From the NCBI GenBank assembly GCA_944332465.1, contig CALVJZ010000003.1, forward strand, positions 1-33,187: a stretch of 33,187 nucleotides of DNA, in the 5' to 3' direction. A model generated the notes under the pieces. That model was not told the DNA's origin. It did no database searches and worked only from the letters and a program-made list of their open reading frames with translations. This DNA is from an uncultured Bacilli bacterium. Its GTDB lineage: Bacteria > Bacillota_I > Bacilli_A > RF39 > UBA660. The translations under genes were made by a program, and so were the position numbers. Below, in pieces: positions 3 through 32,935 of the stretch (positions are counted from its first letter, which is position 1; each line of letters begins with the position of its first letter).

Positions 3-2066
3 TTTATTGGTCTTGGTATTTTAGCTTTTATATTGATTGTTGTTGCGGTTATTGCTACTTTTTCTTTTGCTGCTCCTTTAGATAATGATGTTAAGGTTGA
101 AGAGAATAGTGAGTTAACTTATTATATTGATATTATTTATGATGGTAAGGATGGTAGTGCTGTTACTTCTAGTGATAATGCTACTGCTCAGGTATATAGT
201 GATTATATTTATGTTGAAGATAAGATACCTGATGGTTTAACTTTTAAAGGGTTTGTAGAAACAGAAGATGGTACTATTGGTGCTGTTAAGCGTAGTGATA
301 ATAGTTTTTGTGCAGGTTATGTTGTTGATGGTGTAGATGGACTTAAATATGATGCAGATACACGTATGGTTACTTTTAAAGTTAAGAATTTACAAGCTGG
401 TTGTAAGATAACAGTTGGTATTATTACACAGACTCCTACTTTACCTAGTGGTGTTAATAGAATGGATTTTTATAATACAGCATTTGGACGTGAGGGTAAT
501 CAATCAGCTACTTCAAATACTGTTCATGCTTTTATTGGCCGTGATAGTGTAACTACTTATAATGTTACTTATCAATATACAGGTGATGTTCCTGATAATG
601 CACCAAGTCTTCCACCTGTTTCAAGTTATGCTGCTGGAACAACAGTTGGTATTGCCCAAGATATTAATTTAGATGGTTATCAATTTAGTGGTTGGAAATT
701 AGAGGGCGTAACATCTGTTGATGGTAAATCATTTGTGATGCCAGCTAAGAATGTTGTTTTAACTGGTAGTTTTACGAAGAAAGAACAAAAAGTAGAAGAG
801 GTTAAATATACTATTTCTGGTGTTGCACCTGATGGCTATCTTCCTCCGCTTGATAAGAGTTATCCTGTAGGTAGTGATGTTAAACTTGATTCTTTAAAAC
901 CAGGTGATGTAATTAATGGTTATCGTTTCTTAGGATGGAAAACTGATGATGTAGAACTTCCTCCACTTACAACAGAAGAGTCAACTATATTTACGATGCC
1001 AGATAATCCCGTTACTTTAGTTGGTCAATTTGAAAGAATTAGTTATAAAGTTACTTATAAATTTCAAGGTTCAGTTATTCCACCAAATGCAGATAGTTTG
1101 TTACCAAGTGAAGAAAGTTATTATCCAGGTGATAAAGTAATAACAGCACCTTTCCCTGAGACTTCAGGATATCGTTTCTTAGGGTGGTATCAAGCAGATG
1201 AATTTATAATGCCTGAAGAAGATGTTGTTATTTATGGGGAATGGATGGTTGAAACTGGGGTTTTTGCTCCAAGTATAAGTAAAGATATTGTTGATAAACA
1301 GACTTCTTATCAGTCTGGTGATATAGTTAAGTTTAATATCGTCGTTACAAATAATGAAAATTATGAAATAACTGATGTTATGTTAGAAGAACAATTAGAT
1401 GGTGCTAAGTTTGTAAGTGGTACTGGTTATGAAGTTAAAAATGATTCTTATGTTTTTATACCTAGTATAGGACCTAAAGGAAGTATTAGTGTTTCTGCAC
1501 AATATGTTGCTGGTGATGATGTTGTTAAGACATATAAAAACGTTGTTTCATTAACTGGTGCTCTTGCAGAGGGTAATTATATTTTAGATACTAGTAAAAC
1601 TTATAAAGCTGAAATAGAGTTTTTAGTTAGTAATATATCTTTAGATATTAATAAAGTTAATGAAGATGGAGAAAAATTAAGTAATTCAGAGTTTACTTTA
1701 TATCGTAATTCTAGTTTAACTAGTGTTGTTTCTAAAGGACTTAGTTTTAAAGGTTTATCTCCTGGTACAACATATTATTTAAAAGAAACTAAAGCACCAA
1801 GTGGTTACCAATTATTAGGTAAGACTTTAGAAGTTAAAGTAGATAGTAGTGGTAAAATAACTATTCCAAATTATGAAGTTACTTCTCAAAGTGGAAAACA
1901 TCAAGTTACAATTGTTAATCAAGAAATTAATGTATTACCAAATACTGGTGGAGTAGGAATTGTTCCATTTATAGTAGTTGGATTAGTTCTTATTATATTT
2001 GGTATAGGTTTTGTTATAGCGATGTTTAGAAAGAGAGGTGATAAACATGAAAAGAGTCGTAAGTAG
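3..2066 (+). CDS. Sortase-anchored pilus tip/adhesin protein (5'-truncated); isopeptide/DUF11-like domains, three GY.F.GW repeats, SpaA/CnaB domain, LPNTG anchor
   Basis: Frame is open from the window edge (FIGLGILAFILIVVAV..., signal-peptide-like). E-box YYLKETKAPSGYQL; LPNTG followed by a TM segment and basic tail (RKRGDKHEKSRK); adjacent to pilins and sortases. Confidence 0.85.
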   Translation, partial: FIGLGILAFILIVVAVIATFSFAAPLDNDVKVEENSELTYYIDIIYDGKDGSAVTSSDNATAQVYSDYIYVEDKIPDGLTFKGFVETEDGTIGAVKRSDNSFCAGYVVDGVDGLKYDADTRMVTFKVKNLQAGCKITVGIITQTPTLPSGVNRMDFYNTAFGREGNQSATSNTVHAFIGRDSVTTYNVTYQYTGDVPDNAPSLPPVSSYAAGTTVGIAQDINLDGYQFSGWKLEGVTSVDGKSFVMPAKNVVLTGSFTKKEQKVEEVKYTISGVAPDGYLPPLDKSYPVGSDVKLDSLKPGDVINGYRFLGWKTDDVELPPLTTEESTIFTMPDNPVTLVGQFERISYKVTYKFQGSVIPPNADSLLPSEESYYPGDKVITAPFPETSGYRFLGWYQADEFIMPEEDVVIYGEWMVETGVFAPSISKDIVDKQTSYQSGDIVKFNIVVTNNENYEITDVMLEEQLDGAKFVSGTGYEVKNDSYVFIPSIGPKGSISVSAQYVAGDDVVKTYKNVVSLTGALAEGNYILDTSKTYKAEIEFLVSNISLDINKVNEDGEKLSNSEFTLYRNSSLTSVVSKGLSFKGLSPGTTYYLKETKAPSGYQLLGKTLEVKVDSSGKITIPNYEVTSQSGKHQVTIVNQEINVLPNTGGVGIVPFIVVGLVLIIFGIGFVIAMFRKRGDKHEKSRK
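555..1245 (+). repeat. Three internal ~75-aa repeats (Listeria-Bacteroides/InlB B-repeat or SHIRT-like)
   Basis: Y.V.Y...G..P.....Y..G..V......GY(Q/R)F(S/L)GW....F.MP...V...G.(F/W) occurs three times in the translation; boundaries approximate. Confidence 0.7.
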
Positions 2067-2730
2067 TTTATTTGTTCTATTTTGTATTTTATGTTTAGTA
2101 CCTTTCTCAGTTTCTGCTGATGTGATAGATAATACACATACATCTAGTATGAATATTAGTTATAAGTATGGTGATATTTCTATTAGTAATACGCAAGTAT
2201 CATTATATTATTTAGGTGGATATGATGAGAGTGGTAATTTACAATTTACAGAAGAATATGCACCTGTTAGTTTTAATCCTTTAGAATTAGATACTATGGG
2301 ATTAGAAGTTCAAGCTAAAAAAGTAGAAGATTTTATTACTACTTCTAAGTGTATTCCTAGTTATGATGAAAATACTAATGAATCTGGTGAGATTAATTTT
2401 AGTAATTTAGTACCAGGAATTTACTTTGTTAGTTATGATGTTAAAGAGATAGATGGTTATTCTTATTATGCAGCTCCTGTTTTAGTAAGCATTCCTGTTT
2501 TACAAGATGATTTATATCAATATGATATTAATATGAATGTAAAGACAGAGCGTGAACAAATTATTTTGGATAATACTCCTAATGGAGAAGATATAAATGT
2601 GCCTAATACAATTGATAATGTTTTATATTATGGGGTATTATTAGTAATTTCTGTATTAGTCATTTTTGGAATAATGACTTATTTGATAAAAATTAAAGAA
2701 GTGAAAGGTGAGAAAAATGATAAAAAGTAA
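2047..2730 (+). CDS. Minor/basal pilin subunit with non-canonical VPNT sorting signal
   Basis: RBS AGAGGTG before ATG 2047; signal peptide ending VSA; CnaB-like motif TNESGEINFSNLVPGIYFV; INVPNTID followed by TM and basic tail. Confidence 0.7.
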   Translation: MKRVVSSLFVLFCILCLVPFSVSADVIDNTHTSSMNISYKYGDISISNTQVSLYYLGGYDESGNLQFTEEYAPVSFNPLELDTMGLEVQAKKVEDFITTSKCIPSYDENTNESGEINFSNLVPGIYFVSYDVKEIDGYSYYAAPVLVSIPVLQDDLYQYDINMNVKTEREQIILDNTPNGEDINVPNTIDNVLYYGVLLVISVLVIFGIMTYLIKIKEVKGEKNDKK

Positions 2731-4240
2731 AAAGATTTTAATTTTTGTTGTCTCTGTATTTATGTTCTTTGGTCTTTTAAATGTTAGTGCTATTACAACT
2801 GGTAGTACTACAGGAACTATTGATACAGGAAGTAAAATTGTTACAGACCAAGCGTCTCTTATTGTAAGAGGTGTTGAAAATGGTGATCGTTTTAATGCTT
2901 ATAAAGTATTAGATACATATTATAATGCTACTACAAATACTATTAGTTATCAGTTTACAAATGATTTTCAAAAGTTTTTAAGTAGTAGTGATACTTATAG
3001 AGATTTAACTGTTGATAATTTATATAAGTATACAAGTGGTAATATTTCTAGTGGAAGTACTTTATCAACTTCAGATATTGATAAATTAGCTAGTGCTTAT
3101 GCTGGATATGTTCGTAAGAATAGTGTAAATGGTACAGCAATGAATGTAAGTGCTAATACAGCTAGTGCTCAACTTCAAGCTGGTTCTTATTTAGTATTAC
3201 CTACACAAACAATGAAAGTTTATGCTGTTATGTTTGGTAACTTAGATTTTACAGCAAATGGTGATAGTTGGACAATTAATAATGAAACAATTACAGCTAA
3301 AGTAAGTAATGCTGGTGTTAGTAAATCAGTTGGTGAAGAGAATATGGATAATGGTTCATATTCAATTGGAGATGATATTCCATTTATTGTTAAAGCAACT
3401 GTTCCACAATATCCAACAAATGCAACTAATAAGACTTATGTAATTAAAGATACTGTTACAGCTGGTCTTACATTTAATGGGGTACAATCTGTTATTATTC
3501 ATGATGGTGATGAAACTTTAGTAACTGCTAGTAATGGTAATGTTACAAATAGTTCAGATGAACAAGTAGCAACTATTAAGATTAGTGGACAAACATTAAC
3601 TATTACATTTAATGTAGATTATGTTAATAGTACAGCTTTAACTATTAATTATTCTGCTAAGTTAAATAATAATGCTGGTCTTGGAGCAACAGGTGGAAAT
3701 AAAAATAGTGTTAGTTTAACTTATTCAAATGATCCATATGGTACAGGTAGTTATACAACTATACCAGCTGATGGAGATAGTGAAGTAGATATTTATGTTT
3801 ATGGATTAGAAATCTATAAATATGGTGAAAGTGATGATAGTGTTAATGTTGCGTTACAAAATGCAGAATTTACTATTTATAAAGATAGTAGTTTAAATAA
3901 TAAAATTGCAACAGTAACTACTAATGCTAAAGGTATTGCTCAATACAAAGGTTTAGGTGCAGGAACTTATTATGTAAAAGAAACTAAAGCTCCTACTGGT
4001 TATGTATTAGATAGTAGTATTCATGAAATTGAAATTGGTCCTAGTGGTACATTAGAGGCTGCTGATACTGAAGGTTATTATCGTTTAGAAGTTAGTAACC
4101 AAAAAGCGGGACTTTTACCTGTTACAGGTAGTGTTGGAACTATTTTATTTGTAGTTTTAGGTCTTGCAATTATTGGTATAGCTGTATATTTCTTTGGATT
4201 TTACAAAAAGAATAAAAAACAAGGTGAACAAGCTATATAA
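2717..4240 (+). CDS. Major (backbone) pilin, SpaH/EbpC/RrgB-like with isopeptide D2 domain
   Basis: Signal peptide; D2-like segment (YVIKDTVTAGLTF...INYSAKLN...NSVSLTYSNDP); E-box YYVKETKAPTGYVL; LPVTG, TM and KKNKK; directly upstream of a class C sortase. Confidence 0.88.
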   Translation: MIKSKKILIFVVSVFMFFGLLNVSAITTGSTTGTIDTGSKIVTDQASLIVRGVENGDRFNAYKVLDTYYNATTNTISYQFTNDFQKFLSSSDTYRDLTVDNLYKYTSGNISSGSTLSTSDIDKLASAYAGYVRKNSVNGTAMNVSANTASAQLQAGSYLVLPTQTMKVYAVMFGNLDFTANGDSWTINNETITAKVSNAGVSKSVGEENMDNGSYSIGDDIPFIVKATVPQYPTNATNKTYVIKDTVTAGLTFNGVQSVIIHDGDETLVTASNGNVTNSSDEQVATIKISGQTLTITFNVDYVNSTALTINYSAKLNNNAGLGATGGNKNSVSLTYSNDPYGTGSYTTIPADGDSEVDIYVYGLEIYKYGESDDSVNVALQNAEFTIYKDSSLNNKIATVTTNAKGIAQYKGLGAGTYYVKETKAPTGYVLDSSIHEIEIGPSGTLEAADTEGYYRLEVSNQKAGLLPVTGSVGTILFVVLGLAIIGIAVYFFGFYKKNKKQGEQAI

Positions 4241-4243
4241 TTT

Positions 4244-5137
4244 ATGAAGAATGCGATAAAAGAAAATAAGTTAGTTATTTTTCTATTTATCCCTATGATT
4301 TTATTAGGATTAGGATTACTCCTATATCCTTTTATAAGTAATCGAATTAGTGTTGGACATTATCAGAAGGTTATTCAAACTTATGATAAAAAAGTAAGTG
4401 AAGAAACAAGGGATGCTAATAATAAACTGCTTATGGATGCCAGAGAATATAATAGAAGTTTATCGTTTGGTGAAGTAGTTGATGTTTTTCAAAATCCTGA
4501 AGTTAAAAATTCTGATAGATATTTGTCTATTTTAAATATTAATGATAATGGAATGATGGGATACATCTCAATACCTAAGATAGATGTAAGAATACCAATT
4601 TATCATGGTACAACGTCAGATGTATTGCAAAAAGGGGTTGGACATTTAGAAGGTAGTTCTTTTCCAGTAGGTGGAGAAAGTACGCATGCGATTTTATCTG
4701 CTCATAGAGGACTACCTTCATCTAAATTATTTACTGATTTAGATCAATTGAAAAAAGGGGATATTTTCTATATATATATTCTCAATCAGGTCCTTGCCTA
4801 TCAAGTAGATCAAGTATTAGTTACAGAGCCATCAGAAACAGATGCTTTAAGAATTGTTGATGGTAAAGACTATATTACTTTAGTTACTTGTACACCATAT
4901 GCTATTAATACTCATAGATTACTAGTTCGTGGGGAAAGAATAGAATATAATGAACAAGTCGAAAAGGATATAGAAGTAGATTATGCTTTATCTACAGCAG
5001 ATATCATTTTATATATCAGTTTAGTTATAGCATTATTACTTATTGTTGTTGCTATAATATGTTTTATTAAATCTAGAAAAAATAGACAAAATCCAAAAGA
5101 TGTAGAAACTAATTCTTCAGATATTGAAGTTATATAG
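4244..5137 (+). CDS. srtC: Class C (pilin-polymerising) sortase
   Basis: Catalytic SAHRG and TLVTCTPYAINTHRLLVRG; N- and C-terminal TM segments; lid-like DVF. Confidence 0.95.
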   Translation: MKNAIKENKLVIFLFIPMILLGLGLLLYPFISNRISVGHYQKVIQTYDKKVSEETRDANNKLLMDAREYNRSLSFGEVVDVFQNPEVKNSDRYLSILNINDNGMMGYISIPKIDVRIPIYHGTTSDVLQKGVGHLEGSSFPVGGESTHAILSAHRGLPSSKLFTDLDQLKKGDIFYIYILNQVLAYQVDQVLVTEPSETDALRIVDGKDYITLVTCTPYAINTHRLLVRGERIEYNEQVEKDIEVDYALSTADIILYISLVIALLLIVVAIICFIKSRKNRQNPKDVETNSSDIEVI

Positions 5138-5146
5138 GAGGACGTT

Positions 5147-5929
5147 ATGAGAAAGATTAAAAGAATTATTTTATATATTATTTTAGTCTTTTTTATAGGC
5201 GTTTTCTTTTTTTCTTTATGTCATATTATTATGTGGTATTTTGATAATAAAAAAACAGATAAAATTATTAATGAATTACAAGATATGGTGGAAGTTATTC
5301 CTCCTAAAGAGAATATTACAACAGAGATGTTAGATAGTAGTAAATATTATGATGTTTCATTATTAAGTGTTGATTTTACTAATTTATTACAAAAGAATAA
5401 TGATGTTGTTGGATGGATTCAAATACCTAATACTAATGTTGATTATCCATTTGTACAAACTAAAAATAATAGTTATTATTTAACACATTCTTTTGATAAG
5501 AAATATAATGATGCAGGATGGTTGTTTTTAGATTATAGAAATCATTTAAATCCCATAGATATGAATACTATTATTTATGCACATGGTAGAGTAGATGGTA
5601 CTATGTTTGGTAGTTTAAAAAATATACTTAGTGATGAGTTTCTAGATAAAGATGAGTGTTATATTAAAATGTCTACATTAAGTTATAATTATTTATTTGA
5701 AATATTTAGTGCATATCATATAAAAACAACAGATGATTATTTAGATACTAATTATAAAGATTTAAGTAAGTATCGTGATTATTTAGATAAAATTAAAAAG
5801 CGTAGTATGATAGATTTTGATAATAGTGTTTCAACTCAGAATAAAATAATTACACTATCTACTTGTTATAACAACTGGGAGAAGATGGTAGTTCATGCAA
5901 AGCTTGTTAAACAGGAAAAAAGATATTAA
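5147..5929 (+). CDS. srtB: Class B sortase
   Basis: N-terminal TM; GWIQIPNTNVDYP, YYLTHSF, NTIIYAH, GTMFGSL, TLSTC typical of SrtB. Confidence 0.9.
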   Translation: MRKIKRIILYIILVFFIGVFFFSLCHIIMWYFDNKKTDKIINELQDMVEVIPPKENITTEMLDSSKYYDVSLLSVDFTNLLQKNNDVVGWIQIPNTNVDYPFVQTKNNSYYLTHSFDKKYNDAGWLFLDYRNHLNPIDMNTIIYAHGRVDGTMFGSLKNILSDEFLDKDECYIKMSTLSYNYLFEIFSAYHIKTTDDYLDTNYKDLSKYRDYLDKIKKRSMIDFDNSVSTQNKIITLSTCYNNWEKMVVHAKLVKQEKRY

Positions 5930-12106: not shown

Positions 12107-14095
12107 GTGATAGGAAGAATTGTAGAAATTGTTGATAATAGCGTTACTATAAAATTAGAGATTAATATTAGTGAGCAACCCAATTTAGTTAATTTACATG
12201 TTGTTTTTGATGACGGTAGTGGTAGAAGTGTTGTTGCAGAAGTAGCGAATGTTAATCAAGAGAAGATGCTTGCTAATATAGTTGGTGAAATTGAAAATGG
12301 TGTTTTTACACCTGGATCTAGTGTAAAGCCTTCTTTTAAGTCACAAGTAAGATTAATAAAAGCAGAGGAGTTAGCACTTCTTTTTGGGAATTCTGAAACA
12401 GAGTTTGGTTATACTAATTTTGGTACTAGTAATGTTTATCGTGGATATAAAATTAATGTGCCAGTTAATGAGTTTTTTAATTCACATTTTGCAATACTTG
12501 GTAACTCTGGTGCTGGTAAAAGTTGTACGGTTGCGTCTATTGTGCAAAAATTATTTTTAAGTAGTCCTAAAGCACCAATTAATTCAGCAATATTTTTCTT
12601 TGATGCATATGGTGAGTATACTAATGCCTTTGGAGCTATTCACGAGAAAAATCCAATGTTACATTATAAATCATATACAACTAATGTTATTGATCCTGAT
12701 ACAGAAATATTACGTATTCCAGCATGGCTACTTGATGTTGATGATTTAGCTTTATTACTTGATGCGACAACACCAGCTCAACTTCCTATTTTGGAAAAGA
12801 CATTAAAGCTAGTACCAATTTTAACAGGTAATTCAGGAGTCGTAATTAAGCGTAAAAATGATATTATTGCAAGAGCATTACAAGATATTTTACTTAGTGG
12901 TAATGAATCAACAAAGATTCGTGACCAAGTTGTAGCTGTTTTAACGAAGTTTAATACACCAGAGTTAAACTTGGAAAGTCAAATAGCACAACCTGGATAT
13001 GTTCGTACTTTAAAACAATGTTTATATGTAGATAAAACTGGTAAAATGCAAGAGATGGAACTTGTTGTTGAGTTTATTAGAGGATATATTAGTGATGTTC
13101 AAGAAGAGATTAATGAAGCAGATTTAAATTATTTTTATTCACTTACTGATTTGGAAGAAGCTATGGAATTTGCAATGATTAGTGAAGGTATTTTAAAAAG
13201 TGATAAAGTTTTTGATGTAGCAAATATTATGAATGTTAGACTTCATTCTTTAGCAACAGGTGATCATAAAGCTTATTTTGAATATCCTAGATATGTTAAT
13301 AAAGATCAGTATATTGATAGTTTGATGTTAGATCCAACATCTAATACAAGAGCTCAAATTATTAATTTTAATATTAATTATATTGATGATAGATTAGCAA
13401 AAGTATTTACAAAGATTTTATCGCGTATGTTATTTAATAAAGCTAGTAATTTTAAACCACGTGGGTCAATGGCTTTTAATATAATTATTGAGGAAGCACA
13501 TCGTTATGTTCAACATGATAGTGATGTTAGTCTACTTGGATATAATATATTTGAACGTATTGCGAAAGAAGGTCGTAAGTATGGACTTTTCTTAGGACTT
13601 ATTACACAACGTCCTAGTGAGTTATCTGATACTTGTGTATCACAGTGTATGAATTTTGTAATATTAAGAACACTTCATCCAACGGATTTACAATATATTC
13701 GTGAAATGGTACCTAATGTTTCTTCAGAGTTAGTATTACAGCTTAAAAACTTAAAACCAGGTAATTGTATTGCCTTTGGTAGTGCTTTTCAAGTACCAAC
13801 TTCTATGTATGTGGATTTACCTAATCCAAGACCGCTTTCTAATAATGTTGATTTAAATGATGTTTGGTATAGACAAAGTAATCCTGATACTTTAATTAAT
13901 GCTAGTTCTAGTAATTATACACAAATGCCTGAAGTTAGAACTGTTGATTTTAATCCTAATAATAATGGTATGGTTGTTCCACAACAAGTTGTTAGTGTAG
14001 CAGCAAATCCTACTGTTAGTGCAGGTGGAAGTCTAGCAATGGGACAAAGTGTTCCAACTCAGAATAGATTTATACAAAATATTCCTAATCAATAA
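12107..14095 (+). CDS. HerA/DUF87 (FtsK-HerA superfamily) ATPase
   Basis: HAS-barrel-like N-terminus; HFAILGNSGAGKS (Walker A), FDAYGEY, IIIEEAHRY (Walker B), RIAKEGRKYG, ITQRPSEL; low-complexity C-terminal tail. Confidence 0.9.
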   Translation: MIGRIVEIVDNSVTIKLEINISEQPNLVNLHVVFDDGSGRSVVAEVANVNQEKMLANIVGEIENGVFTPGSSVKPSFKSQVRLIKAEELALLFGNSETEFGYTNFGTSNVYRGYKINVPVNEFFNSHFAILGNSGAGKSCTVASIVQKLFLSSPKAPINSAIFFFDAYGEYTNAFGAIHEKNPMLHYKSYTTNVIDPDTEILRIPAWLLDVDDLALLLDATTPAQLPILEKTLKLVPILTGNSGVVIKRKNDIIARALQDILLSGNESTKIRDQVVAVLTKFNTPELNLESQIAQPGYVRTLKQCLYVDKTGKMQEMELVVEFIRGYISDVQEEINEADLNYFYSLTDLEEAMEFAMISEGILKSDKVFDVANIMNVRLHSLATGDHKAYFEYPRYVNKDQYIDSLMLDPTSNTRAQIINFNINYIDDRLAKVFTKILSRMLFNKASNFKPRGSMAFNIIIEEAHRYVQHDSDVSLLGYNIFERIAKEGRKYGLFLGLITQRPSELSDTCVSQCMNFVILRTLHPTDLQYIREMVPNVSSELVLQLKNLKPGNCIAFGSAFQVPTSMYVDLPNPRPLSNNVDLNDVWYRQSNPDTLINASSSNYTQMPEVRTVDFNPNNNGMVVPQQVVSVAANPTVSAGGSLAMGQSVPTQNRFIQNIPNQ

Positions 14096-23358: not shown

Positions 23359-23859
23359 ATGATTAATAAACAAAATTTGTGGTTTTTAACATTATTTAGT
23401 TTGATTTTAGTACTTAGTGTTTATTACATTACCATGCCTAATGATTTACTTACGAAGGCTCAAGAAGAGAATGTAGAAGAAAAAGATAAAAAGGTAAAAG
23501 AAACAGTTGAAGAAGTATCCTCTTTGACAGCGATGAGAGTTAGTTTAGAAGAAGAAAGACAAGATAAGATGGATGATTTACAAGAACAGTTAACGAGTGA
23601 TACTATTGGGAGTGAAGAAAAGAATAATTTATATGAACAGTTAAAATATTTAAACACGTTACAAAGTCGTGAAGAAGAATTAGAAAAAGCAATAAAAAAA
23701 GAATTTAAATTAGATTCTTTTGTAAAAATCGATAATAATACTGTTTCAGTAGTTTGTGTTTCTAAAGAACATAATAATCCTTTAGCAAATAATATTATGA
23801 GACTTATACAATCTTCTTATGAAGATAAAATGTATATTACGGTTAAATTTCAAAAATAG
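23359..23859 (+). CDS. spoIIIAH: SpoIIIAH-like protein
   Basis: N-terminus KQNLWFLTLFSLILVLSVYYI matches Bacillus SpoIIIAH; helical region followed by a ring-building-motif-like C-terminus. Confidence 0.82.
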   Translation: MINKQNLWFLTLFSLILVLSVYYITMPNDLLTKAQEENVEEKDKKVKETVEEVSSLTAMRVSLEEERQDKMDDLQEQLTSDTIGSEEKNNLYEQLKYLNTLQSREEELEKAIKKEFKLDSFVKIDNNTVSVVCVSKEHNNPLANNIMRLIQSSYEDKMYITVKFQK

Positions 23860-23870
23860 TTAAAAACATA

Positions 23871-23898
23871 CACAGAAAGTATTGTTTTTCATAGAATA
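23871..23898 (+). promoter_or_regulatory. SigK-type promoter for gerE
   Basis: AC (23872-73)-16 nt-CATAgaaTA; gerE is SigK-transcribed in Bacillus subtilis. Confidence 0.6.
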
Positions 23899-23914
23899 CT
23901 TTAGGTGGTGTGAT

Positions 23915-24121
23915 ATGGCAAGTGGTATTTTAACAAGTAGAGAACGTGAGATATTTCTTTTGTTAATAAAGAATAAAACAACAAAGGAAATCGCAAAACA
24001 ATTACATATTAGTGAAAAGACTGTTAGAAATCATATTTCTAATACTATGCAAAAGCTAGGAGTTAATGGTAGAGCAGCGGCAGTAGTAGAACTTTTGAAA
24101 TTACATGAATTGACTATATAA
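23915..24121 (+). CDS. gerE: Spore coat transcriptional regulator GerE
   Basis: LTSREREIF...KTTKEIA..L.ISEKTVRNHISN.MQKLGV.GR..AVVELL closely matches B. subtilis GerE; stand-alone 68-aa LuxR HTH. Confidence 0.92.
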   Translation: MASGILTSREREIFLLLIKNKTTKEIAKQLHISEKTVRNHISNTMQKLGVNGRAAAVVELLKLHELTI

Positions 24122-24146
24122 ATCGTACTAACTTAGTACGATTTTT
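24120..24146 (+). terminator. Hairpin after gerE, adjacent to a SigE-like -10 (CATATACT) for gerM
   Basis: AAATCGTACTA-act-TAGTACGATTT followed by T residues. Confidence 0.6.
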
Positions 24147-24166
24147 CATATACTTTTTTAGGTGAT

Positions 24167-25126
24167 GTGATGATTAAGACAAGAGCAATTAGAAAAATAT
24201 TTGTTACAAGTTTATCGTTGTTTATATTTTTGTTTATAACTACTTTTTTTCATTTTAATACTGATAATACGTTGCGTACTAATTTAGAAATTGCTAGTCC
24301 TTCAGGTCTTTATACTGATACTATTTATTTACTTAATGAACGTAATTTACTTGTAAAAAGTAAAGTTTTATTAGATGAAGTTGATTTAAAAGATAAAATT
24401 ATAGATTTATTAGATAAGTTAACTGTTAAAAAGAATGATTATTTACCTAATGGACTTTTTACTTATATTCCTAAAAATACAGAAGTATTAAATGTAGTAT
24501 TAGGTGATGGATTAGTTACGGTTGATTTTTCAAAAGAGTTTTTAAAGATGAAATTACATTTAGAAAAACAAATAATATCAGGAATTGTTTATAGTATTTT
24601 AGAGTTGGATAATAAGTTAGAAGGGGTAGTTATTTTGGTTGAGGGTGAAGTTTTTTTAGAATATCCTAATACACATGAAAAGTTAGATAGTCCACTTACT
24701 AAAAAGATAGGGATTAATGAAGAGTATAATTTAACTTCACGTAAAGATATTAATAGAGTAGTTATATATTATTTATCGAGGATTAATAATGATATTTATT
24801 ATGTTCCTGTTACAAAGTATGTTAATGATAGTCGTGATAAAATTAAAATTATTATTGATGAGTTAGCTAGTAGTGTTATTTATGAAGATAATTTAATGAG
24901 TTTTTTACATAGTAATGTTAAATTATTGGATTATTATGAAGAAGGTGGTGTTTTCTTTTTAAACTTTAATGATTATTTGTTTGATAGTGATGATAAAGTT
25001 TTGGAAGAAGTTTTATATAGTATTTCTTATTCAGTTTTTGATAATTATGATGTTAACCAAGTAATGTTTGAAGTTAATGATAATTTTATTGGACAAGTAT
25101 TTAGTGATGGAACTATAAAAAAATAA
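24167..25126 (+). CDS. gerM: GerM spore protein (two GerMN domains)
   Basis: N-terminal TM; LPNGLFTYIPKNTEVL...VDFSKEF; IGINEE; YYVPVTK; second GerMN domain; adjacent to gerE. Confidence 0.8.
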   Translation: MMIKTRAIRKIFVTSLSLFIFLFITTFFHFNTDNTLRTNLEIASPSGLYTDTIYLLNERNLLVKSKVLLDEVDLKDKIIDLLDKLTVKKNDYLPNGLFTYIPKNTEVLNVVLGDGLVTVDFSKEFLKMKLHLEKQIISGIVYSILELDNKLEGVVILVEGEVFLEYPNTHEKLDSPLTKKIGINEEYNLTSRKDINRVVIYYLSRINNDIYYVPVTKYVNDSRDKIKIIIDELASSVIYEDNLMSFLHSNVKLLDYYEEGGVFFLNFNDYLFDSDDKVLEEVLYSISYSVFDNYDVNQVMFEVNDNFIGQVFSDGTIKK

Positions 25127-26419: not shown

Positions 26420-26496
26420 GTCTGCGTAGCTCAGCTGGATAGAGCAATCGCCTTCTAAGCGATCGGTCAGGCGTTCGAGTCGCCTCGCGGACACCA
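26420..26496 (+). tRNA. tRNA-Arg (anticodon TCT)
   Basis: 77 nt cloverleaf: GTCTGCG/CGCGGAC acceptor stem, AGCTCAGCTGGATAGAGC D arm, ATCGC-CT TCT AA-GCGAT anticodon arm, GTTCGAG T loop, encoded ACCA. Confidence 0.97.
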
Positions 26497-28719: not shown

Positions 28720-30792
28720 TTGAAAGTTGTCTTGCAGGATGGAAATAAAGACTGTGGAATTAGTGCACTTCTATCTATTATTAGATATTTTGGGGGGAAT
28801 ATATCAAAAGAATATTTAAGAAGTCTTACAGGCACTAATAAAAATGGAGTCTCCATCTATCAGTTAATGGAAGCAGCAACAACACTTGGTTTTTCTTGTG
28901 AGGGTGTGAAGGGTGAGGTTTCATTTTTAGATTTATCTAAATTACCTTGTATTGCTCATATTGTATATCAAAAGAAATACCAACATTTTGTAGTTATATA
29001 CAAGATTGATTTTGATAAAAATGAAGTTGTTTTGATGGATCCAGCTAAAGGAAAAGTTGTATTATCTGTTAGTGCTTTTCAAATGTTATCTAGTGGTTAT
29101 TTTCTTTACTTGGTTCCTAATAAAAGTCTTCCTTGTTATTATGAAAAGAAAACTTTATTCAAATTATTAAGTCAGTTTTTAAAGCAGTATAAAATTATAT
29201 TTTTAATAATCATTATAGCATCTTTTCTTTTAATATTTATTGAAATTCTTTTAACCTTTCATTTTCAATATTTATATGATTTTGCTGTATCTTATAAAAT
29301 TATTGATAATATTTTTGTGATTAGTTATTTTCTTCTCGCTTTTTGTTTATTTCTAATATGTTTTAAAACCTTAAAAAACTACTTAATTTTAAGACTTAAT
29401 CTTTTCTTTGATCATAATATGAGTCTTTATTTTTATAAACAAATTCTTCTACTTCCATATTTATTTTTTAAGAATAGACCACTTGGAGAAATTTTAGAAA
29501 GACTACGTGATGTTAGTGAAGTTAAAAATTTTGTACTGGGACTATTTACTTCTATTGTTAGTAATTTATTATTTTTTATATTATTTTTTATACTACTATA
29601 TCGTATTCATTATATCTTTTTGTTACTGTTGTTAGGATATTTTGTTGTATTAGTTTTACTTTCTTTTTTCTTTTTTCGAAAAAAAGAAAGAAGACTTAAG
29701 AAGTTATTTACTAAGAAAGATTTTGTTCAGTCTTTTTTAGTAGAAACGTTTCAAAATGTAGATACTATTAAAGGTTTACATTTAGAATATGATTTTTTGG
29801 AACAAATAGAAAAATATTATCAAATTTATTTGGAGAAAAACTATGAGTTTCAAAAAATTGTTTTTTTAGAAAATTTTTTAAAACAGAGCTTTTATTATGT
29901 ATTAAATTTATTGTTTTTTGGATTTGGTAGTTACCTTTTAATAGATAGTAATATTTCTATCGCCTCCTTTATTATTTGTCAACAGATATTTAATTATTTA
30001 ATGCAGTATGGGGAAGATATTATGAGTTTTTTCTTTAATAGTTATAAAATTCCATTATCTATTTCAAGAATTGAAGAATTGTTTTCTATTTTTAGAGAGA
30101 ACTTTGAAGGTGGTAGTTATTATCAGTTATTAAAATTAGATGGTGATATTGTGTTTAGACATTTATCTTTCTCTTATGGCTTAAAGACAATTTTTTCTGA
30201 TTTTTCGTTTACAATTTTTTCACATAGTAAAGTTTTAATTACTGGTAAAAGTGGATGTGGAAAAAGTAGTTTGGTAAAAATAATTATGCGCTATTTAGAA
30301 GTTAATTATGGAGTGGTACGAATTGGTGGTATTGATATTAATCATATTCATTTAGATGTTATTAGAAATAATATTTCTTATGTGACGGGGAATGAACTTT
30401 TATTTTCTAATACATTACTTTATAACATTACGCTTGGTCGAGAAATAGAAGAAGAAAGGGTAAAAAAAGTTATTTCTTTAGTTAAGTTAGATGAGGTTGT
30501 GGAAAGACTCCCATTAAAATTAATGACTATAGTAGAAGAAAATGGTTTTAATTTTAGTGGTGGTGAAAGAGGGAAAATATTATTAGCAAGAGCTTTACTT
30601 AAAGTTAGTGATATTTATATTTTTGATGAGGCGTTTCACCAAATAGATATAGAACAAGAACATATTATTTTAGGTAATATTTTTAATTATTTGCGTGAAA
30701 AAACTATTATTGTGATTAGTCATAGATTAAATAATTTGGATTATTATGATAAAAGATATCGTTTGGAGGATGGTGAAATGCATGAATTTTAA
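28720..30792 (+). CDS. Peptidase-containing ABC transporter (C39 peptidase, TMD and NBD)
   Basis: QDGNKDCG (catalytic Cys), HFVV, LMDPA; TM region; GKSGCGKS, FSGGE, IFDEA, ISHR; TTG start after GGAGG. Confidence 0.92.
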   Translation: MKVVLQDGNKDCGISALLSIIRYFGGNISKEYLRSLTGTNKNGVSIYQLMEAATTLGFSCEGVKGEVSFLDLSKLPCIAHIVYQKKYQHFVVIYKIDFDKNEVVLMDPAKGKVVLSVSAFQMLSSGYFLYLVPNKSLPCYYEKKTLFKLLSQFLKQYKIIFLIIIIASFLLIFIEILLTFHFQYLYDFAVSYKIIDNIFVISYFLLAFCLFLICFKTLKNYLILRLNLFFDHNMSLYFYKQILLLPYLFFKNRPLGEILERLRDVSEVKNFVLGLFTSIVSNLLFFILFFILLYRIHYIFLLLLLGYFVVLVLLSFFFFRKKERRLKKLFTKKDFVQSFLVETFQNVDTIKGLHLEYDFLEQIEKYYQIYLEKNYEFQKIVFLENFLKQSFYYVLNLLFFGFGSYLLIDSNISIASFIICQQIFNYLMQYGEDIMSFFFNSYKIPLSISRIEELFSIFRENFEGGSYYQLLKLDGDIVFRHLSFSYGLKTIFSDFSFTIFSHSKVLITGKSGCGKSSLVKIIMRYLEVNYGVVRIGGIDINHIHLDVIRNNISYVTGNELLFSNTLLYNITLGREIEEERVKKVISLVKLDEVVERLPLKLMTIVEENGFNFSGGERGKILLARALLKVSDIYIFDEAFHQIDIEQEHIILGNIFNYLREKTIIVISHRLNNLDYYDKRYRLEDGEMHEF

Positions 30793-31195
30793 ATTTCAAA
30801 AACCTTTTTCTTGTTTTTATTTTTTGTTTATATTTTTTGGTATTCTTTTTTTCATTTTTTTGTTTGTTTTGTTTCATAAAAAAATTATTAATACTTATCA
30901 AATGATTCCTTTTGTGGCAATAGGAGAAGATACTATAGAAGGAGTTGTTTCAACCTCAGAACTTTCGTGGTTAGAAAAAAATAAATATTTACTTATTGAT
31001 GGAGAAAAAATTTTATTTAATATTACTTCCGTACAAAGAAAAGTTATGAAAAAAAAGAGACTTTGGTATCATCAAGTGGAGTTAAAACTTACGGTTTCTA
31101 AATATCATTTTAATGATTCTTTATTAGTTGGAGTTTTACAGAAGAAAAAAACATTTAGTTATTTGTTTTTTGAAATATGGAAAGGAGAGTCATGA
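30782..31195 (+). CDS. Single-TM accessory protein of the peptide export operon
   Basis: Overlaps the transporter stop; one N-terminal TM plus a small beta-rich domain; its TGA overlaps the ATG of peptide 1. Confidence 0.6.
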   Translation: MNFKFQKPFSCFYFLFIFFGILFFIFLFVLFHKKIINTYQMIPFVAIGEDTIEGVVSTSELSWLEKNKYLLIDGEKILFNITSVQRKVMKKKRLWYHQVELKLTVSKYHFNDSLLVGVLQKKKTFSYLFFEIWKGES

Positions 31196-31332
31196 AAAGA
31201 GTTAGTGATTTAGAATTAGAAGAAATAAGAGGAGGTGTATCTGGATGGGTAATGGTTGGTATTGCGGCAATAGTAGTCTTTTTAGCAGGCGTTTTTGAAG
31301 GTATCACCAATCCCACTCCATGTCAAAGATGA
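31192..31332 (+). CDS. Double-glycine leader peptide 1 (46 aa), bacteriocin class IIb-like
   Basis: Hand translation: MKRVSDLELEEIRGG|VSGWVMVGIAAIVVFLAGVFEGITNPTPCQR; RBS AAGGAG; ATGA overlap; absent from the ORF track. Confidence 0.85.
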   Translation: MKRVSDLELEEIRGGVSGWVMVGIAAIVVFLAGVFEGITNPTPCQR

Positions 31333-31499
31333 AAATAGTTGATAATAATGAGTTAGATTGTGTTTTAGGAGGAGAAACTATATCTGGTACAGTAATTAAT
31401 GCCTTTGGAAATATTATAGAGTTATTACTTGATGCAGGTAGAAGAGTAGGAAGTGCTATTAGACGATTTTCAGAGGGGAATTTATGTTCTTTAGACTGA
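31329..31499 (+). CDS. Double-glycine leader peptide 2 (56 aa), bacteriocin class IIb-like
   Basis: Hand translation: MKIVDNNELDCVLGG|ETISGTVINAFGNIIELLLDAGRRVGSAIRRFSEGNLCSLD; ATGA overlap with peptide 1; absent from the ORF track. Confidence 0.82.
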   Translation: MKIVDNNELDCVLGGETISGTVINAFGNIIELLLDAGRRVGSAIRRFSEGNLCSLD

Positions 31500-31557
31500 T
31501 TTTGTCTAAAAATGTGGTAAAACTTGCTTTTTTTAATAAAAAAATGGGCAAAAATTG

Positions 31558-31586
31558 TTGAAATATAAGGAAAGGTTTGATATAAT
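31558..31586 (+). promoter_or_regulatory. SigA promoter for rpsU
   Basis: TTGAAA-17 nt-TATAAT with extended TG. Confidence 0.75.
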
Positions 31587-31619
31587 TCATTGTAGTTAAA
31601 GCGAAGGGAGGGATAATTG

Positions 31620-31820
31620 ATGGCAACACAAGTAACAGTTAAAAACGGAAATTTGGATTTAGCTCTTAGAAAATTCAAACAAAAAGTGGCTAGAGACGGT
31701 GTCCCTTCTGAATGCAAAAAACGTGAATCTTATATCAAACCTGGAGTAGCTAGAAGAGCAGCTAAAAAAGAAGGAATTAAAAATTCTAAAAAAAGAAATC
31801 GTAAAGATAACAGAGACTAA
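31620..31820 (+). CDS. rpsU: 30S ribosomal protein S21
   Basis: VTVKNGNLDLALRKFK...KKRESYIKPGVARR; RBS GGAGG. Confidence 0.93.
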   Translation: MATQVTVKNGNLDLALRKFKQKVARDGVPSECKKRESYIKPGVARRAAKKEGIKNSKKRNRKDNRD

Positions 31821-31855: not shown

Positions 31856-32935
31856 ATGTTAAAGGTTTCAAAGAAATTTAAAAGTCTTGCTTTAGCAGGA
31901 TTATTGTCTCTTTGTATTATTCCTGTTAATGGATGTAGCAGTAAAAATAGTAATGAAGGTTATGAACCAACTGAATATGCAGAGGGAGAACATCAAATTG
32001 TTTCTGTAGAAAAAAGTTTTGATCCATTCTTTGGTAAAAATGGTACTTATGGATTAAAAGCACCAGAAGGATATAAAATTACTGATTATGATTATGATAA
32101 AACTGATTATTTCGGTTTTGATGATTATACTTATGAAAATGTAGCTCCTGTAGAAGTCTTAAATCCTAATAATATTGGTACACCATTAGAAGAGACTGAA
32201 GAAGTTAGTGAAGTTTATGAAAGTGGAGAACATGTTATTGTAGATATAAAGCGTGGTTTTAATCCTTTCTTTGGTAAAGGAGATCAAGTTTTTCATTTAA
32301 CAGCACCAGAAGGATACGATGTTTTAGATTATGATTATGATAAAACTGATTCATTTGAATTTGTAAATATTACATATGTTAATAATCAACAGGTAAAGGT
32401 TAATGATATTAATCAGTTTGGTGAAGTTGTAGATAAAGTAGAGAGTAAAGAACAAGGTAATACATATGATGTTGGTACTGATTTTATGGTGGTATTAAAT
32501 CGTAGCTTTAATCCATTGTTTGGTAAAGATGAGATGAAAGAAGTACCTAGTATTCCTGGTTATGTAGTTGTTGATTATGATTATGATAAAACCGATTCAT
32601 TTGAATTTGAAACAATAGTTTATAAAAACATCGTACCTGTTGTTGTGGAAAATGAAAATGAAATTGGAGTTCCTGTTTCACCTGTAGAAGAAGATACACA
32701 TAGTGATGGTATTTATGATGAAGGGGAACACGTATTAGTAGATATTGATAGAAATTTAAATTTTTTAACTGGTTATAGTGGAACAAAAGAAGTAACATCA
32801 CCTGATGGATATGAGGTTTTAGACTATGATTACGATAAAAATGATGATTTTGAGTTTGATACTATAGTTTATAGTAATGACGAAAGTGTTTCTGTAAGCG
32901 ATAGTAATGATTTTGGTAAAGTCTTAAAAAAATAG
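31856..32935 (+). CDS. Acidic putative lipoprotein built of four tandem ~80-aa repeats
   Basis: Basic N-terminus, hydrophobic core and VNGC lipobox-like site; RBS AAGGAGG; four repeats. Confidence 0.75.
   Translation: MLKVSKKFKSLALAGLLSLCIIPVNGCSSKNSNEGYEPTEYAEGEHQIVSVEKSFDPFFGKNGTYGLKAPEGYKITDYDYDKTDYFGFDDYTYENVAPVEVLNPNNIGTPLEETEEVSEVYESGEHVIVDIKRGFNPFFGKGDQVFHLTAPEGYDVLDYDYDKTDSFEFVNITYVNNQQVKVNDINQFGEVVDKVESKEQGNTYDVGTDFMVVLNRSFNPLFGKDEMKEVPSIPGYVVVDYDYDKTDSFEFETIVYKNIVPVVVENENEIGVPVSPVEEDTHSDGIYDEGEHVLVDIDRNLNFLTGYSGTKEVTSPDGYEVLDYDYDKNDDFEFDTIVYSNDESVSVSDSNDFGKVLKK
31976..32926 (+). repeat. Four intragenic repeats Y..GEH...FNPFFGK...PEGY.V.DYDYDKTD.FEF...Y.N...V.V...N..G
   Basis: Directly visible in the translation; GA(T/C)TATGATTA(T/C)GATAAAA recurs four times in the DNA. 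Confidence 0.9.

Follow-up and report, generated by a model that had tools for sequence, protein, structure and literature searches.

In a 33,187-nucleotide stretch of DNA from an uncultured Bacilli bacterium of the order RF39 (the window, which is the entire contig C3 of a 1.23-Mb, 80%-complete genome with 28% G+C in 124 contigs), four co-oriented genes at positions 28720 to 31499 encode a peptidase-containing ATP-binding cassette (ABC) transporter (PCAT), a small membrane protein, and two short peptides with double-glycine leaders, here called peptide 1 and peptide 2. Giving it about an even chance of being right, we read this locus as a class IIb-type, probably disulfide-stapled, membrane-active two-peptide system, which is a core, vertically inherited trait and most likely targets other cells. 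Support for this reading comes from the intact catalytic triad of the C39 peptidase domain and the ATPase motifs of the exporter, from the match of peptide 1 to the NCBIfam family TIGR03949, from a GxxxG motif and a Cys that are invariant in both peptides, and from the constant pairing of the two. The part that we state with confidence is that the two genes are genuine and co-translated and that their products are substrates of the PCAT and function together.

Anatomy and conservation of the peptide pair

Both precursors begin with a 15-residue leader of the double-glycine pattern, with hydrophobic residues at positions -4, -7, and -12, Glu at -8, and Gly-Gly at -2/-1. The mature part (core) of peptide 1 is a hydrophobic helix of 31 residues with a GxxxG motif (GVFEG), a Pro, and a single Cys, and the core of peptide 2 has 41 residues, is amphipathic, and contains a GxxxG motif (GRRVG), an Arg-Arg pair, and a single Cys. 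The leaders, the core lengths, and the hydrophobic and amphipathic character of the cores had all been described in an initial annotation of this DNA, made from the sequence alone, and were found as described. The one Cys per core also stood, but it lies 2 residues (peptide 1) and 3 residues (peptide 2) before the end instead of the 3 to 4 given there, and among the small-xxx-small motifs listed for core 1, GVFEG proved to be the conserved GxxxG, while the others did not correspond to a conserved motif of this kind. Peptide 1 and peptide 2 each start in an ATGA overlap with the TGA stop codon of the preceding gene, and an AGGAGAG Shine-Dalgarno sequence lies upstream of peptide 1. The gene for the small protein begins within the final codons of the PCAT gene (alternative earlier ATG codons are found at 30746 and 30770), which completes the series of overlapping stops and starts that had been reported across the four genes.

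For the comparison with relatives, 60 loci were fetched, representing 60 genomes and 59 genera; they were chosen by their match to peptide 2, and the presence of peptide 1 alone is therefore an independent count. Using profile searches, both peptides were found in 60/60 loci, with ORFs (open reading frames) that were intact and in the same frame and order at 27 to 72% identity. In the best match per locus, G37, P41, and C44 of peptide 1 were retained in 60/60, G33 in 59/60, and F30 in 57/60, and for peptide 2 the residues G37, G41, and C53 were retained in 60/60 and the Arg-Arg pair in 57 to 58 of 60. The regular expressions behind the initial alignments required the Cys; 20 peptide 1 rows and 14 peptide 2 rows were added later by profiles alone, and all of these have it. 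The GxxxG motif was present in 59 of the 60 peptide 1 cores (family form, G-V/I-I-D/E-G) and in every peptide 2 core (family form, G-R-S-L-G), and the Cys followed it at a distance of 7 residues in peptide 1 and 12 residues in peptide 2. It was the only Cys of the core in 53/60 and 57/60 sequences, respectively. Conservation of the Cys residues and of the ORFs and locus had been put forward in the initial annotation as a check of its proposal, and both held, the latter across more than 125 genera.

Six different public proteins (P0130, P0262, P0272, P0354, P0365, and P0022) are in-frame fusions in which peptide 1 is followed by a short linker, a complete second double-glycine leader, and peptide 2; judging from these sequences, some lineages may produce both peptides from a single precursor that is cleaved at two sites. 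Natural fusions that keep the second leader, together with the constant co-occurrence of the peptides, fit 1:1 use and a shared processing enzyme. We also considered whether peptides 1 and 2 are paralogues of each other and rejected this, as a profile comparison aligned their leaders only. Public homologues amounted to 1677 clusters for peptide 1 and 1917 clusters for peptide 2 at 90% identity, with 476 peptide 2 representatives at 50% identity.

Given their short length, the two ORFs could in principle be chance reading frames with leader-like starts, next to an exporter that handles a different substrate, but we give this explanation almost no credence. A scan of the genome detected a single C39 domain, and peptides 1 and 2 were its only ORFs with a start-proximal double-glycine leader, so that no other candidate substrate was found there; since these sole leaders accompany the sole C39 domain and the peptides are kept in 60/60 loci, the ORFs are not due to chance. 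Their frame, order, and invariant residues across 59 genera at the identities given above and the 1677 and 1917 clusters of public homologues argue in the same direction. DNA nearly identical to the window was present in chicken-gut runs from two studies, and we take the bacterium studied here to be an inhabitant of the chicken gut. Contigs from the RNA libraries of two chicken-gut metatranscriptome runs (X4 and X8) covered parts of the PCAT and small-protein genes and left 31221 to 31474 uncovered; contigs of this kind show neither transcription nor its absence and are evidence neither for nor against chance ORFs.

Class IIb bacteriocins are defined by adjacent peptide genes, double-glycine leaders, a C39-ABC exporter, GxxxG motifs, an immunity gene, cationic cores, and two-peptide activity. 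Against the cut-off of 21.5 bits for TIGR03949 (class IIb bacteriocin, lactobin A/cerein 7B family), peptide 1 scored 21.7 bits as the 51-residue ORF and 22.1 bits in its 46-residue form. The same family was matched at E ≤ 0.01 by 27 of 40 peptide 1 homologues, and 4 of the 14 homologues that were scanned singly scored above the cut-off (24.2 to 30.5 bits). A second class IIb-related model, NF038034 (lactococcin G-beta/enterocin 1071B), was matched by 19/40 peptide 1 homologues at E ≤ 0.01 over all of its 38 positions; its cut-off of 37 bits was not reached by any of them (best score, 27.7), and peptide 1 of the window had no match to it. Peptide 2 fell into no curated family of Pfam or NCBIfam, and 4 of 46 peptide 2 sequences had weak matches to TIGR03949 below the cut-off. 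Both peptides had been called unannotated. This applies to peptide 2, whose public homologues are called genes named "hypothetical protein" and, once, "bacteriocin-like protein," but not to peptide 1, for which some public records read "class IIb bacteriocin, lactobin A/cerein 7B family." The source organisms of the public homologues are named "Bacilli bacterium" or "Mollicutes bacterium." With the TIGR03949 cut-off reached, GxxxG invariant in both peptides, and an intact PCAT next to them, the two-peptide, class IIb-like reading of the initial annotation was upheld.

Because a single invariant Cys occurs at a fixed distance beyond each GxxxG, we infer a parallel pair of helices locked by an interchain disulfide, which would be the simplest explanation for this arrangement. 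When the complex of the two cores was predicted from alignments, the score was 0.03 compared to a mark of 0.32, which counts neither for nor against binding. AlphaFold2 applied to the six natural fusions gave two helices at low confidence, with a predicted local distance difference test score (pLDDT) of 55.6 and a predicted template modeling score (pTM) of 0.33, from which the Cys-Cys distance could not be read.

Exporter, accessory protein, and P3

The PCAT gene starts with TTG, behind GGAGGTGGA. Its product has an N-terminal C39 domain with the Cys/His/Asp triad, fused to an ABC permease and an ATPase, i.e., the architecture that makes a PCAT, with Pfam matches that were all above the cut-offs (Peptidase_C39, 2.2e-32; ABC_membrane, 4.2e-28; ABC_tran, 1.5e-21). 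The best relatives with solved structures were PCAT1 (4ry2; E 9e-85) and ComA (8hf4; E 1.7e-77), and Cys12, His89, and Asp107 aligned on the catalytic residues of PCAT1. Across 35 orthologues, the Cys was found in 34 and the His and Asp in all 35, and Walker A, Walker B, and the H-loop were also kept. In the copy of the window, the Gln of the Q-loop is replaced by Gly (SYVTGNE, residues 553 to 559, 30376 to 30396), a position that is Gln in 30/35 orthologues, and the signature motif is FSGGE instead of LSGGQ; with these two changes, the transporter may be either impaired or tolerant of them. For the narrower NCBIfam subfamily TIGR01193, the protein scored 334.6 bits and thus did not reach the curated cut-off of 523.85 bits.

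The small protein has a short basic N-terminus, one transmembrane helix, and about 95 residues that form a β-barrel predicted to lie outside the cell. It had no Pfam match (E ≤ 0.1) or NCBIfam family, and there was no family common to its 48 homologues. An AlphaFold2 model built with these homologues (pLDDT 92.7) showed the transmembrane helix followed by a six-stranded barrel and two short helices. When this model was used in a wide fold search, 11 of the 31 best rows were β-barrel domains of membrane-fusion proteins, at Z 5.4 to 7.3 (BesA, 7.3; ZneB, 7.0; Spr0693, 6.7; MexA, 6.6; MacA, 6.5; EmrA, 6.5; and further rows for a Bacteroides efflux adaptor, CusB, and AcrA); unrelated barrels scored alike, and all matches were below Z 8. 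Foldseek found nothing in the PDB at E ≤ 0.001. In a protein-language atlas, the nearest named clusters were short HlyD family, LcnD_C, ComB_N, and Beta-barrel_AprE proteins (0.84 to 0.86), which we treat as a lead only. Because of these fold and atlas leads and of its place beside the PCAT, we regard the small protein as a cut-down accessory protein of the LcnD/ComB type, i.e., probably a minimal LcnD/ComB/HlyD-like secretion factor.

The gene for this protein was detected in 127/200 genera, a count that is a floor, since 20 candidates per genome were scored, and in 43/60 loci; in 15/60 loci the PCAT gene directly abuts peptide 1. With about one-third of the genera lacking the gene, the small protein appears to be dispensable. 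A role as a PedC-like CxxC oxidoreductase was ruled out, as no invariant or near-invariant Cys column exists in the 48-sequence alignment, and a role as the immunity protein is disfavored by its resemblance to a cut-down secretion accessory. The small-protein profile also weakly matched proteins of 330 to 426 residues, which were rejected as full-length HlyD relatives; they are helix-turn-helix (HTH) or NAGPA membrane proteins.

Weak secondary matches of the peptide 2 profile led us to a third small gene, P3, whose start in many relatives adjoins or overlaps the peptide 2 stop codon. P3 proteins have 42 to 62 residues and no leader, with a basic N-terminus and one transmembrane helix, often with a Pro, followed by an invariant GxxxG and then T/I-x-I/L-R. 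In 14 of 26 sequences a Cys is placed at the very end, and in 3 more it is within 3 residues of the end. Comparison with mature peptide 2 by hhalign gave a probability of 94.4% (E 8.5e-8) across 33 columns, which cover almost all of the mature peptide, and by this alignment P3 is a paralogue of mature peptide 2; it showed no profile match to peptide 1 and no Pfam or NCBIfam family.

P3 directly follows peptide 2 in 24/60 loci, and in 22 of these the accessory gene is present as well; the P3 profile matched 89/200 genera, a few of these being cross-matches on peptide 2; these counts are floors, since such a short protein is easily missed. Immunity genes in class IIb loci usually follow the structural genes, and P3 is a candidate immunity or anchor protein. 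The claim that there was no visible immunity gene is thus correct for the window but not for its relatives. The P3 profile (E ≤ 0.001) had no match in the genome of the window or in that of a genus mate (G053). In the frames of close relatives, short decayed versions of P3 could be recognized, including one of 34 residues in G053 that has the transmembrane helix and GxxxG, and the ORF of 25 residues at the place of P3 in the window, which has neither, is probably a stub or remnant of this gene.

Positions of the features of the locus are collected in Table 1.

Table 1. Features of the peptide export locus and its downstream neighbor
Feature	Positions	Strand	Details
PCAT (peptidase-C39/ABC-membrane/ABC-ATPase exporter), 690 aa	28720-30792	+	Pfam domains; C39 domain 28720-29124
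Small single-pass membrane protein, 137 aa	30782-31195	+	Gene overlaps 3' end of PCAT gene
Peptide 1 precursor, 46 aa	31192-31332	+	Leader 31192-31236; core (31 aa) 31237-31329
Peptide 2 precursor, 56 aa	31329-31499	+	Leader 31329-31373; core (41 aa) 31374-31496
25-aa ORF, probable P3 stub	31484-31561	+	Overlaps end of peptide 2
rpsU and promoter-like site	31558-31820 (gene 31617-31820)	+	Ribosomal_S21, 2.5e-16

The next gene, rpsU, starts 117 bases downstream of peptide 2 and has a promoter-like site of its own, TTGAAA-17-TATAAT at 31558 to 31586, which matched at 11/12 positions in a promoter scan; rpsU is a conserved downstream neighbor and lies outside the system. In agreement with the initial annotation, the ORF list and domain scans of the window showed that the locus has neither a modifying enzyme nor a two-component system nor a complete ORF for immunity. 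The sole Rfam match in the window was a tRNA at 26420 to 26493.

Elsewhere in the window, a sortase-dependent pilus locus (33 to 5929) encodes a 677-residue protein with InlB B-repeat, SpaA, and SHIRT domains, a Cna-B/SpaA pilin with an LPXTG anchor, and two sortases, a sizeable investment in adhesion for a 1.2-Mb genome. SpoIIIAH-like and GerM (Germane) genes at 23359 to 25126, 3.5 kb upstream of the peptide locus, hint that this small-genome lineage sporulates or retains parts of the sporulation feeding-tube apparatus. At 12107 to 14095, a 662-residue HerA-like (DUF87) ATPase follows two small family-less ORFs and could belong to a defense or DNA-translocation module. Downstream of rpsU (31856 to 32935), there is a 359-residue lipoprotein-like protein with a signal peptide with Cys and four repeats of about 80 residues ending in DYDYDKTD-x-FEF; it belongs to no Pfam or NCBIfam family and has this position in the closest relative only.

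Distribution and possible roles of the system

With peptide 2 of the window as the query, the peptide was found in 184 of 200 genomes, one per genus of the family, nearly always as a single copy. A profile of 46 peptide 2 sequences detected it in 290/301 genomes and 126/127 genera of the order, and a class-wide search found it at full length in 34/34 genomes of its own family and 1/1 of one further family, compared to 0/265 genomes of 27 other families of the class, where there were 7 leader-only matches. All of these counts are samples of the groups searched. In one family (f12), the leader-only matches are proteins of 108 to 141 residues, which are similar to a 130-residue protein with the same leader type in a mycoplasma-like genome (G390; 0.85 Mb, genetic code 4; L095, 3539 to 3931, minus strand). 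The first mature residues of the G390 protein resemble peptide 2, and its gene lies directly beside rplU and rpmA.

Among five genomes without peptide 2, three lacked a C39 domain as well (93% completeness), one had only a weak C39-like match at the cut-off (22.5 bits, E 6.2e-5) in a 1073-residue protein that is not a PCAT, and in one the C39 domain was cut at a contig end. We counted the co-absence of peptide 2 and the C39 domain in favor of our main reading. In a sixth genome (G018; L091, 679 to 6073), the PCAT and accessory genes were intact, peptide 1 was truncated before its Pro-x-x-Cys end, and peptide 2 was gone, with an inserted block of replication-protein (Rep), ParA, and ParB genes in place of the end of the peptide genes, which on the evidence of its sequence is an example of locus loss by a mobile element. 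As seen from the five genomes and this insertion, the system is not strictly essential and is very rarely lost; by its distribution, it is a near-universal, vertically kept core trait of this uncultured, small-genome order of Bacilli.

Under the reading as a membrane-active pair aimed at other cells, the C39 domain would bind each 15-residue leader and cut after Gly-Gly, and the core would pass through the ABC channel, by analogy with PCAT1, ComA, and LagD-type exporters, with the small β-barrel protein probably acting as an export aid like LcnD and ComB. Once outside, peptide 1 with its hydrophobic helix and peptide 2 with its amphipathic helices would pack through their GxxxG motifs in a lactococcin G-like manner, and the two C-terminal cysteines, 7 and 12 residues past the motifs, would lock a parallel 1:1 heterodimer by a disulfide. 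The heterodimer would then insert into a membrane and permeabilize it. Its targets would most likely be other cells, either competitors or, for a lineage with a very small genome, cells from which nutrients could be released. In relatives, membrane-anchored P3 could pair with peptide 1 in the producer membrane and so give protection; the genome of the window, having lost P3, would tolerate its own peptides in some other way. The family match and the presence of P3 in the immunity position favor such a membrane-attacking pair.

Several observations weigh against this reading. The cores in the window are not cationic, with net charges of 0 (peptide 1) and -1 (peptide 2), and across the family the median is only +1 for peptide 1 (range -2 to +4) and +2 for peptide 2 (range -1 to +6). 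The window has no immunity gene in the same operon, only the 25-residue stub, and by the P3 profile the immunity candidate is missing from the genome of the window and from more than half of the 60 relatives' loci. It could be proposed that the producer lacks the receptor and hence needs no immunity, but this fails for UppP, which we take to be the receptor of lactococcin G-type peptides, since UppP/BacA is present in the producer genome. Contig C1 has a CPBP/Rce1-like gene, unlinked to the locus, which is an uncertain candidate for an immunity factor. With respect to the disulfide, the gut is a reducing habitat, and no extracytoplasmic thiol oxidase of the DsbA, BdbD, or VKOR type was detected in the 80%-complete genome, in a search that covered Thioredoxin_4, DSBA, and VKOR but neither DsbB nor membrane-bound thioredoxins.

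The distribution of the system adds to these points. It is a single-copy trait in 126/127 genera of the order, in genomes of 0.5 to 1.6 Mb, with rpsU downstream within 1.4 kb and on the same strand in 40/60 loci. The PCAT gene is upstream on the same strand in 57/60 loci, and two of the three exceptions are cut by contig ends. In 35 genomes with full-length PCATs, mean pairwise identities were 0.42 and 0.40 for the cores of peptides 1 and 2, respectively, compared to 0.34 for the PCAT; the cores are slightly better conserved than the transporter, and the peptides thus evolve no faster than it does. Bacteriocin loci are normally patchy, mobile, and fast-changing. An order-wide core trait weakens the case for an ordinary bacteriocin, and its vertical retention gives weight to the alternative named in the initial annotation, that of a non-toxic role. 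A role that serves the producer is favored by this syntenic, single-copy distribution, by the slow change of the peptides, and by the minimal loci (15/60) that contain only the PCAT and the two peptides.

What such a role might be can be sketched. The pair, or a three-part assembly with P3, could form a disulfide-linked housekeeping complex that the PCAT installs in the envelope of the producer itself, for instance as a channel or as a factor in envelope function, division, or sporulation, and that is not a weapon; bacteriocin-type export would then have been domesticated as a Sec-independent route, with P3 as a non-exported, membrane-resident subunit derived from peptide 2. We hold this explanation to be possible but rather doubtful. 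Besides the distribution and the rate of change, the dispensability of the immunity-like and accessory genes speaks for it, as does P3, which as a membrane-resident paralogue of peptide 2 could be the third subunit. Peptide 1 also resembles a membrane anchor, in that its stretch of about 19 hydrophobic residues is flanked by a Trp on one side and by Arg/Lys-Pro-x-Lys-Cys on the other. Conserved PCAT cargo other than bacteriocins has a precedent in MAM of Faecalibacterium prausnitzii, which has a GG processing site and a neighboring PCAT and is conserved in its lineage (PMC8836110). However, the sole family match is to class IIb bacteriocins, the locus is non-essential (as seen in the Rep/ParA/ParB insertion and in the three of five peptide-less genomes without a C39 domain), and no partner protein or pathway was linked to it in the 60 loci.

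A signaling function, with one or both peptides acting as secreted pheromones of the ComC, BlpC, or PlnA type that are sensed by a kinase encoded elsewhere, appears improbable to us. The double-glycine leaders and the ComA-like exporter would suit it, and the genome encodes nine HATPase_c proteins and one LytTR-type response regulator, which is located at the end of contig C12 and whose partner side falls beyond the contig end; the nearest named atlas cluster to peptide 2 was BlpC (0.83), again a lead only. However, there is no kinase or regulator beside the locus in the window, and the mature peptides, at 31 and 41 residues, include one membrane-spanning hydrophobic helix and both carry GxxxG. 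Pheromones are short and amphipathic and usually diversify into specificity groups, unlike the present peptides with their 6 to 8 positions that are invariant across the order. Whatever likelihood these explanations leave over belongs to some reading that we have not thought of.

For a bacterial weapon, it is unusual to be a single-copy, syntenic trait, as this class IIb-like pair is in about 96% of the sampled genomes of an order whose genomes are only about 1 Mb in size. A 2.8-kb operon that is kept in such small genomes must pay, and the pair would be either a conserved tool to exploit or compete with neighbors or a bacteriocin system turned to cellular use.

Comparison with known systems

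We know of no interchain disulfide in class IIb two-peptide bacteriocins, and among the titles and abstract openings of the papers listed by a literature search we found no report of an intermolecular disulfide in two-peptide bacteriocins. Likewise, no account of this system was found among the papers listed on RF39, on double-glycine/PCAT gut peptides, on cerein 7B/lactobin (which dealt with streptococci, enterococci, and lactobacilli), or on class IIb bacteriocins in Mollicutes. The text of a bacteriocin-mining paper does not mention "RF39"; its supplements, which could list peptides, lay outside the search (PMC12648112).

The exporter shares its full-length architecture and the catalytic Cys/His/Asp with PCAT1 of Clostridium thermocellum and ComA of Streptococcus and differs from both by the Gly in the Q-loop and by FSGGE in place of LSGGQ. 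Its small neighbor has the N-terminal transmembrane helix, the outside β-barrel, and the PCAT-adjacent gene in common with the LcnD/ComB/HlyD accessory proteins; in contrast to these, it has no lipoyl domain, no α-hairpin, and no Pfam sequence match, is lost in about one-third of the genera, and has about 137 residues compared to the approximately 450 of LcnD and ComB. PedC, the thiol-disulfide helper of pediocin-like loci, represents a type of protein that is likewise small, membrane-anchored, and encoded beside the exporter of Cys-containing peptides, whereas the small protein described here has no conserved Cys. MAM, of about 15 kDa, differs from the two peptides in being a single, much larger protein of one genus with no sequence relation to them. 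The likeness is that of a PCAT cargo with a GG site that a gut lineage has retained and that is not regarded as a bacteriocin (PMC8836110).

With the class IIb bacteriocins (lactococcin G/enterocin 1071, plantaricin EF and JK, and lactobin A/cerein 7B), the system shares adjacent, co-translated, unlike peptides of 30 to 40 residues, 15-residue double-glycine leaders, a dedicated C39-ABC exporter, and a GxxxG in each peptide, and in relatives the small membrane protein P3 follows the peptide genes. It differs from them in that it is a core, single-copy, syntenic trait of an order and not a strain-variable accessory locus, in the invariant C-terminal Cys of each peptide and the weakly charged cores, and in its immunity candidate, which is paralogous to one of the two peptides and missing from many loci. 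From the constant spacing between GxxxG and the Cys, a parallel heterodimer locked by a disulfide is predicted, which as far as we are aware is undescribed in two-peptide bacteriocins, and P3 suggests a possible new principle of immunity, in which one partner is mimicked. About 1,900 natural sequence pairs can be used for co-variation analysis and peptide design. As far as is known and can be searched, what is new compared to class IIb systems is the combination of a class IIb-like pair carrying an invariant pair of cysteines with a minimal accessory protein, a membrane paralogue derived from one of the peptides, and a core-genome distribution.

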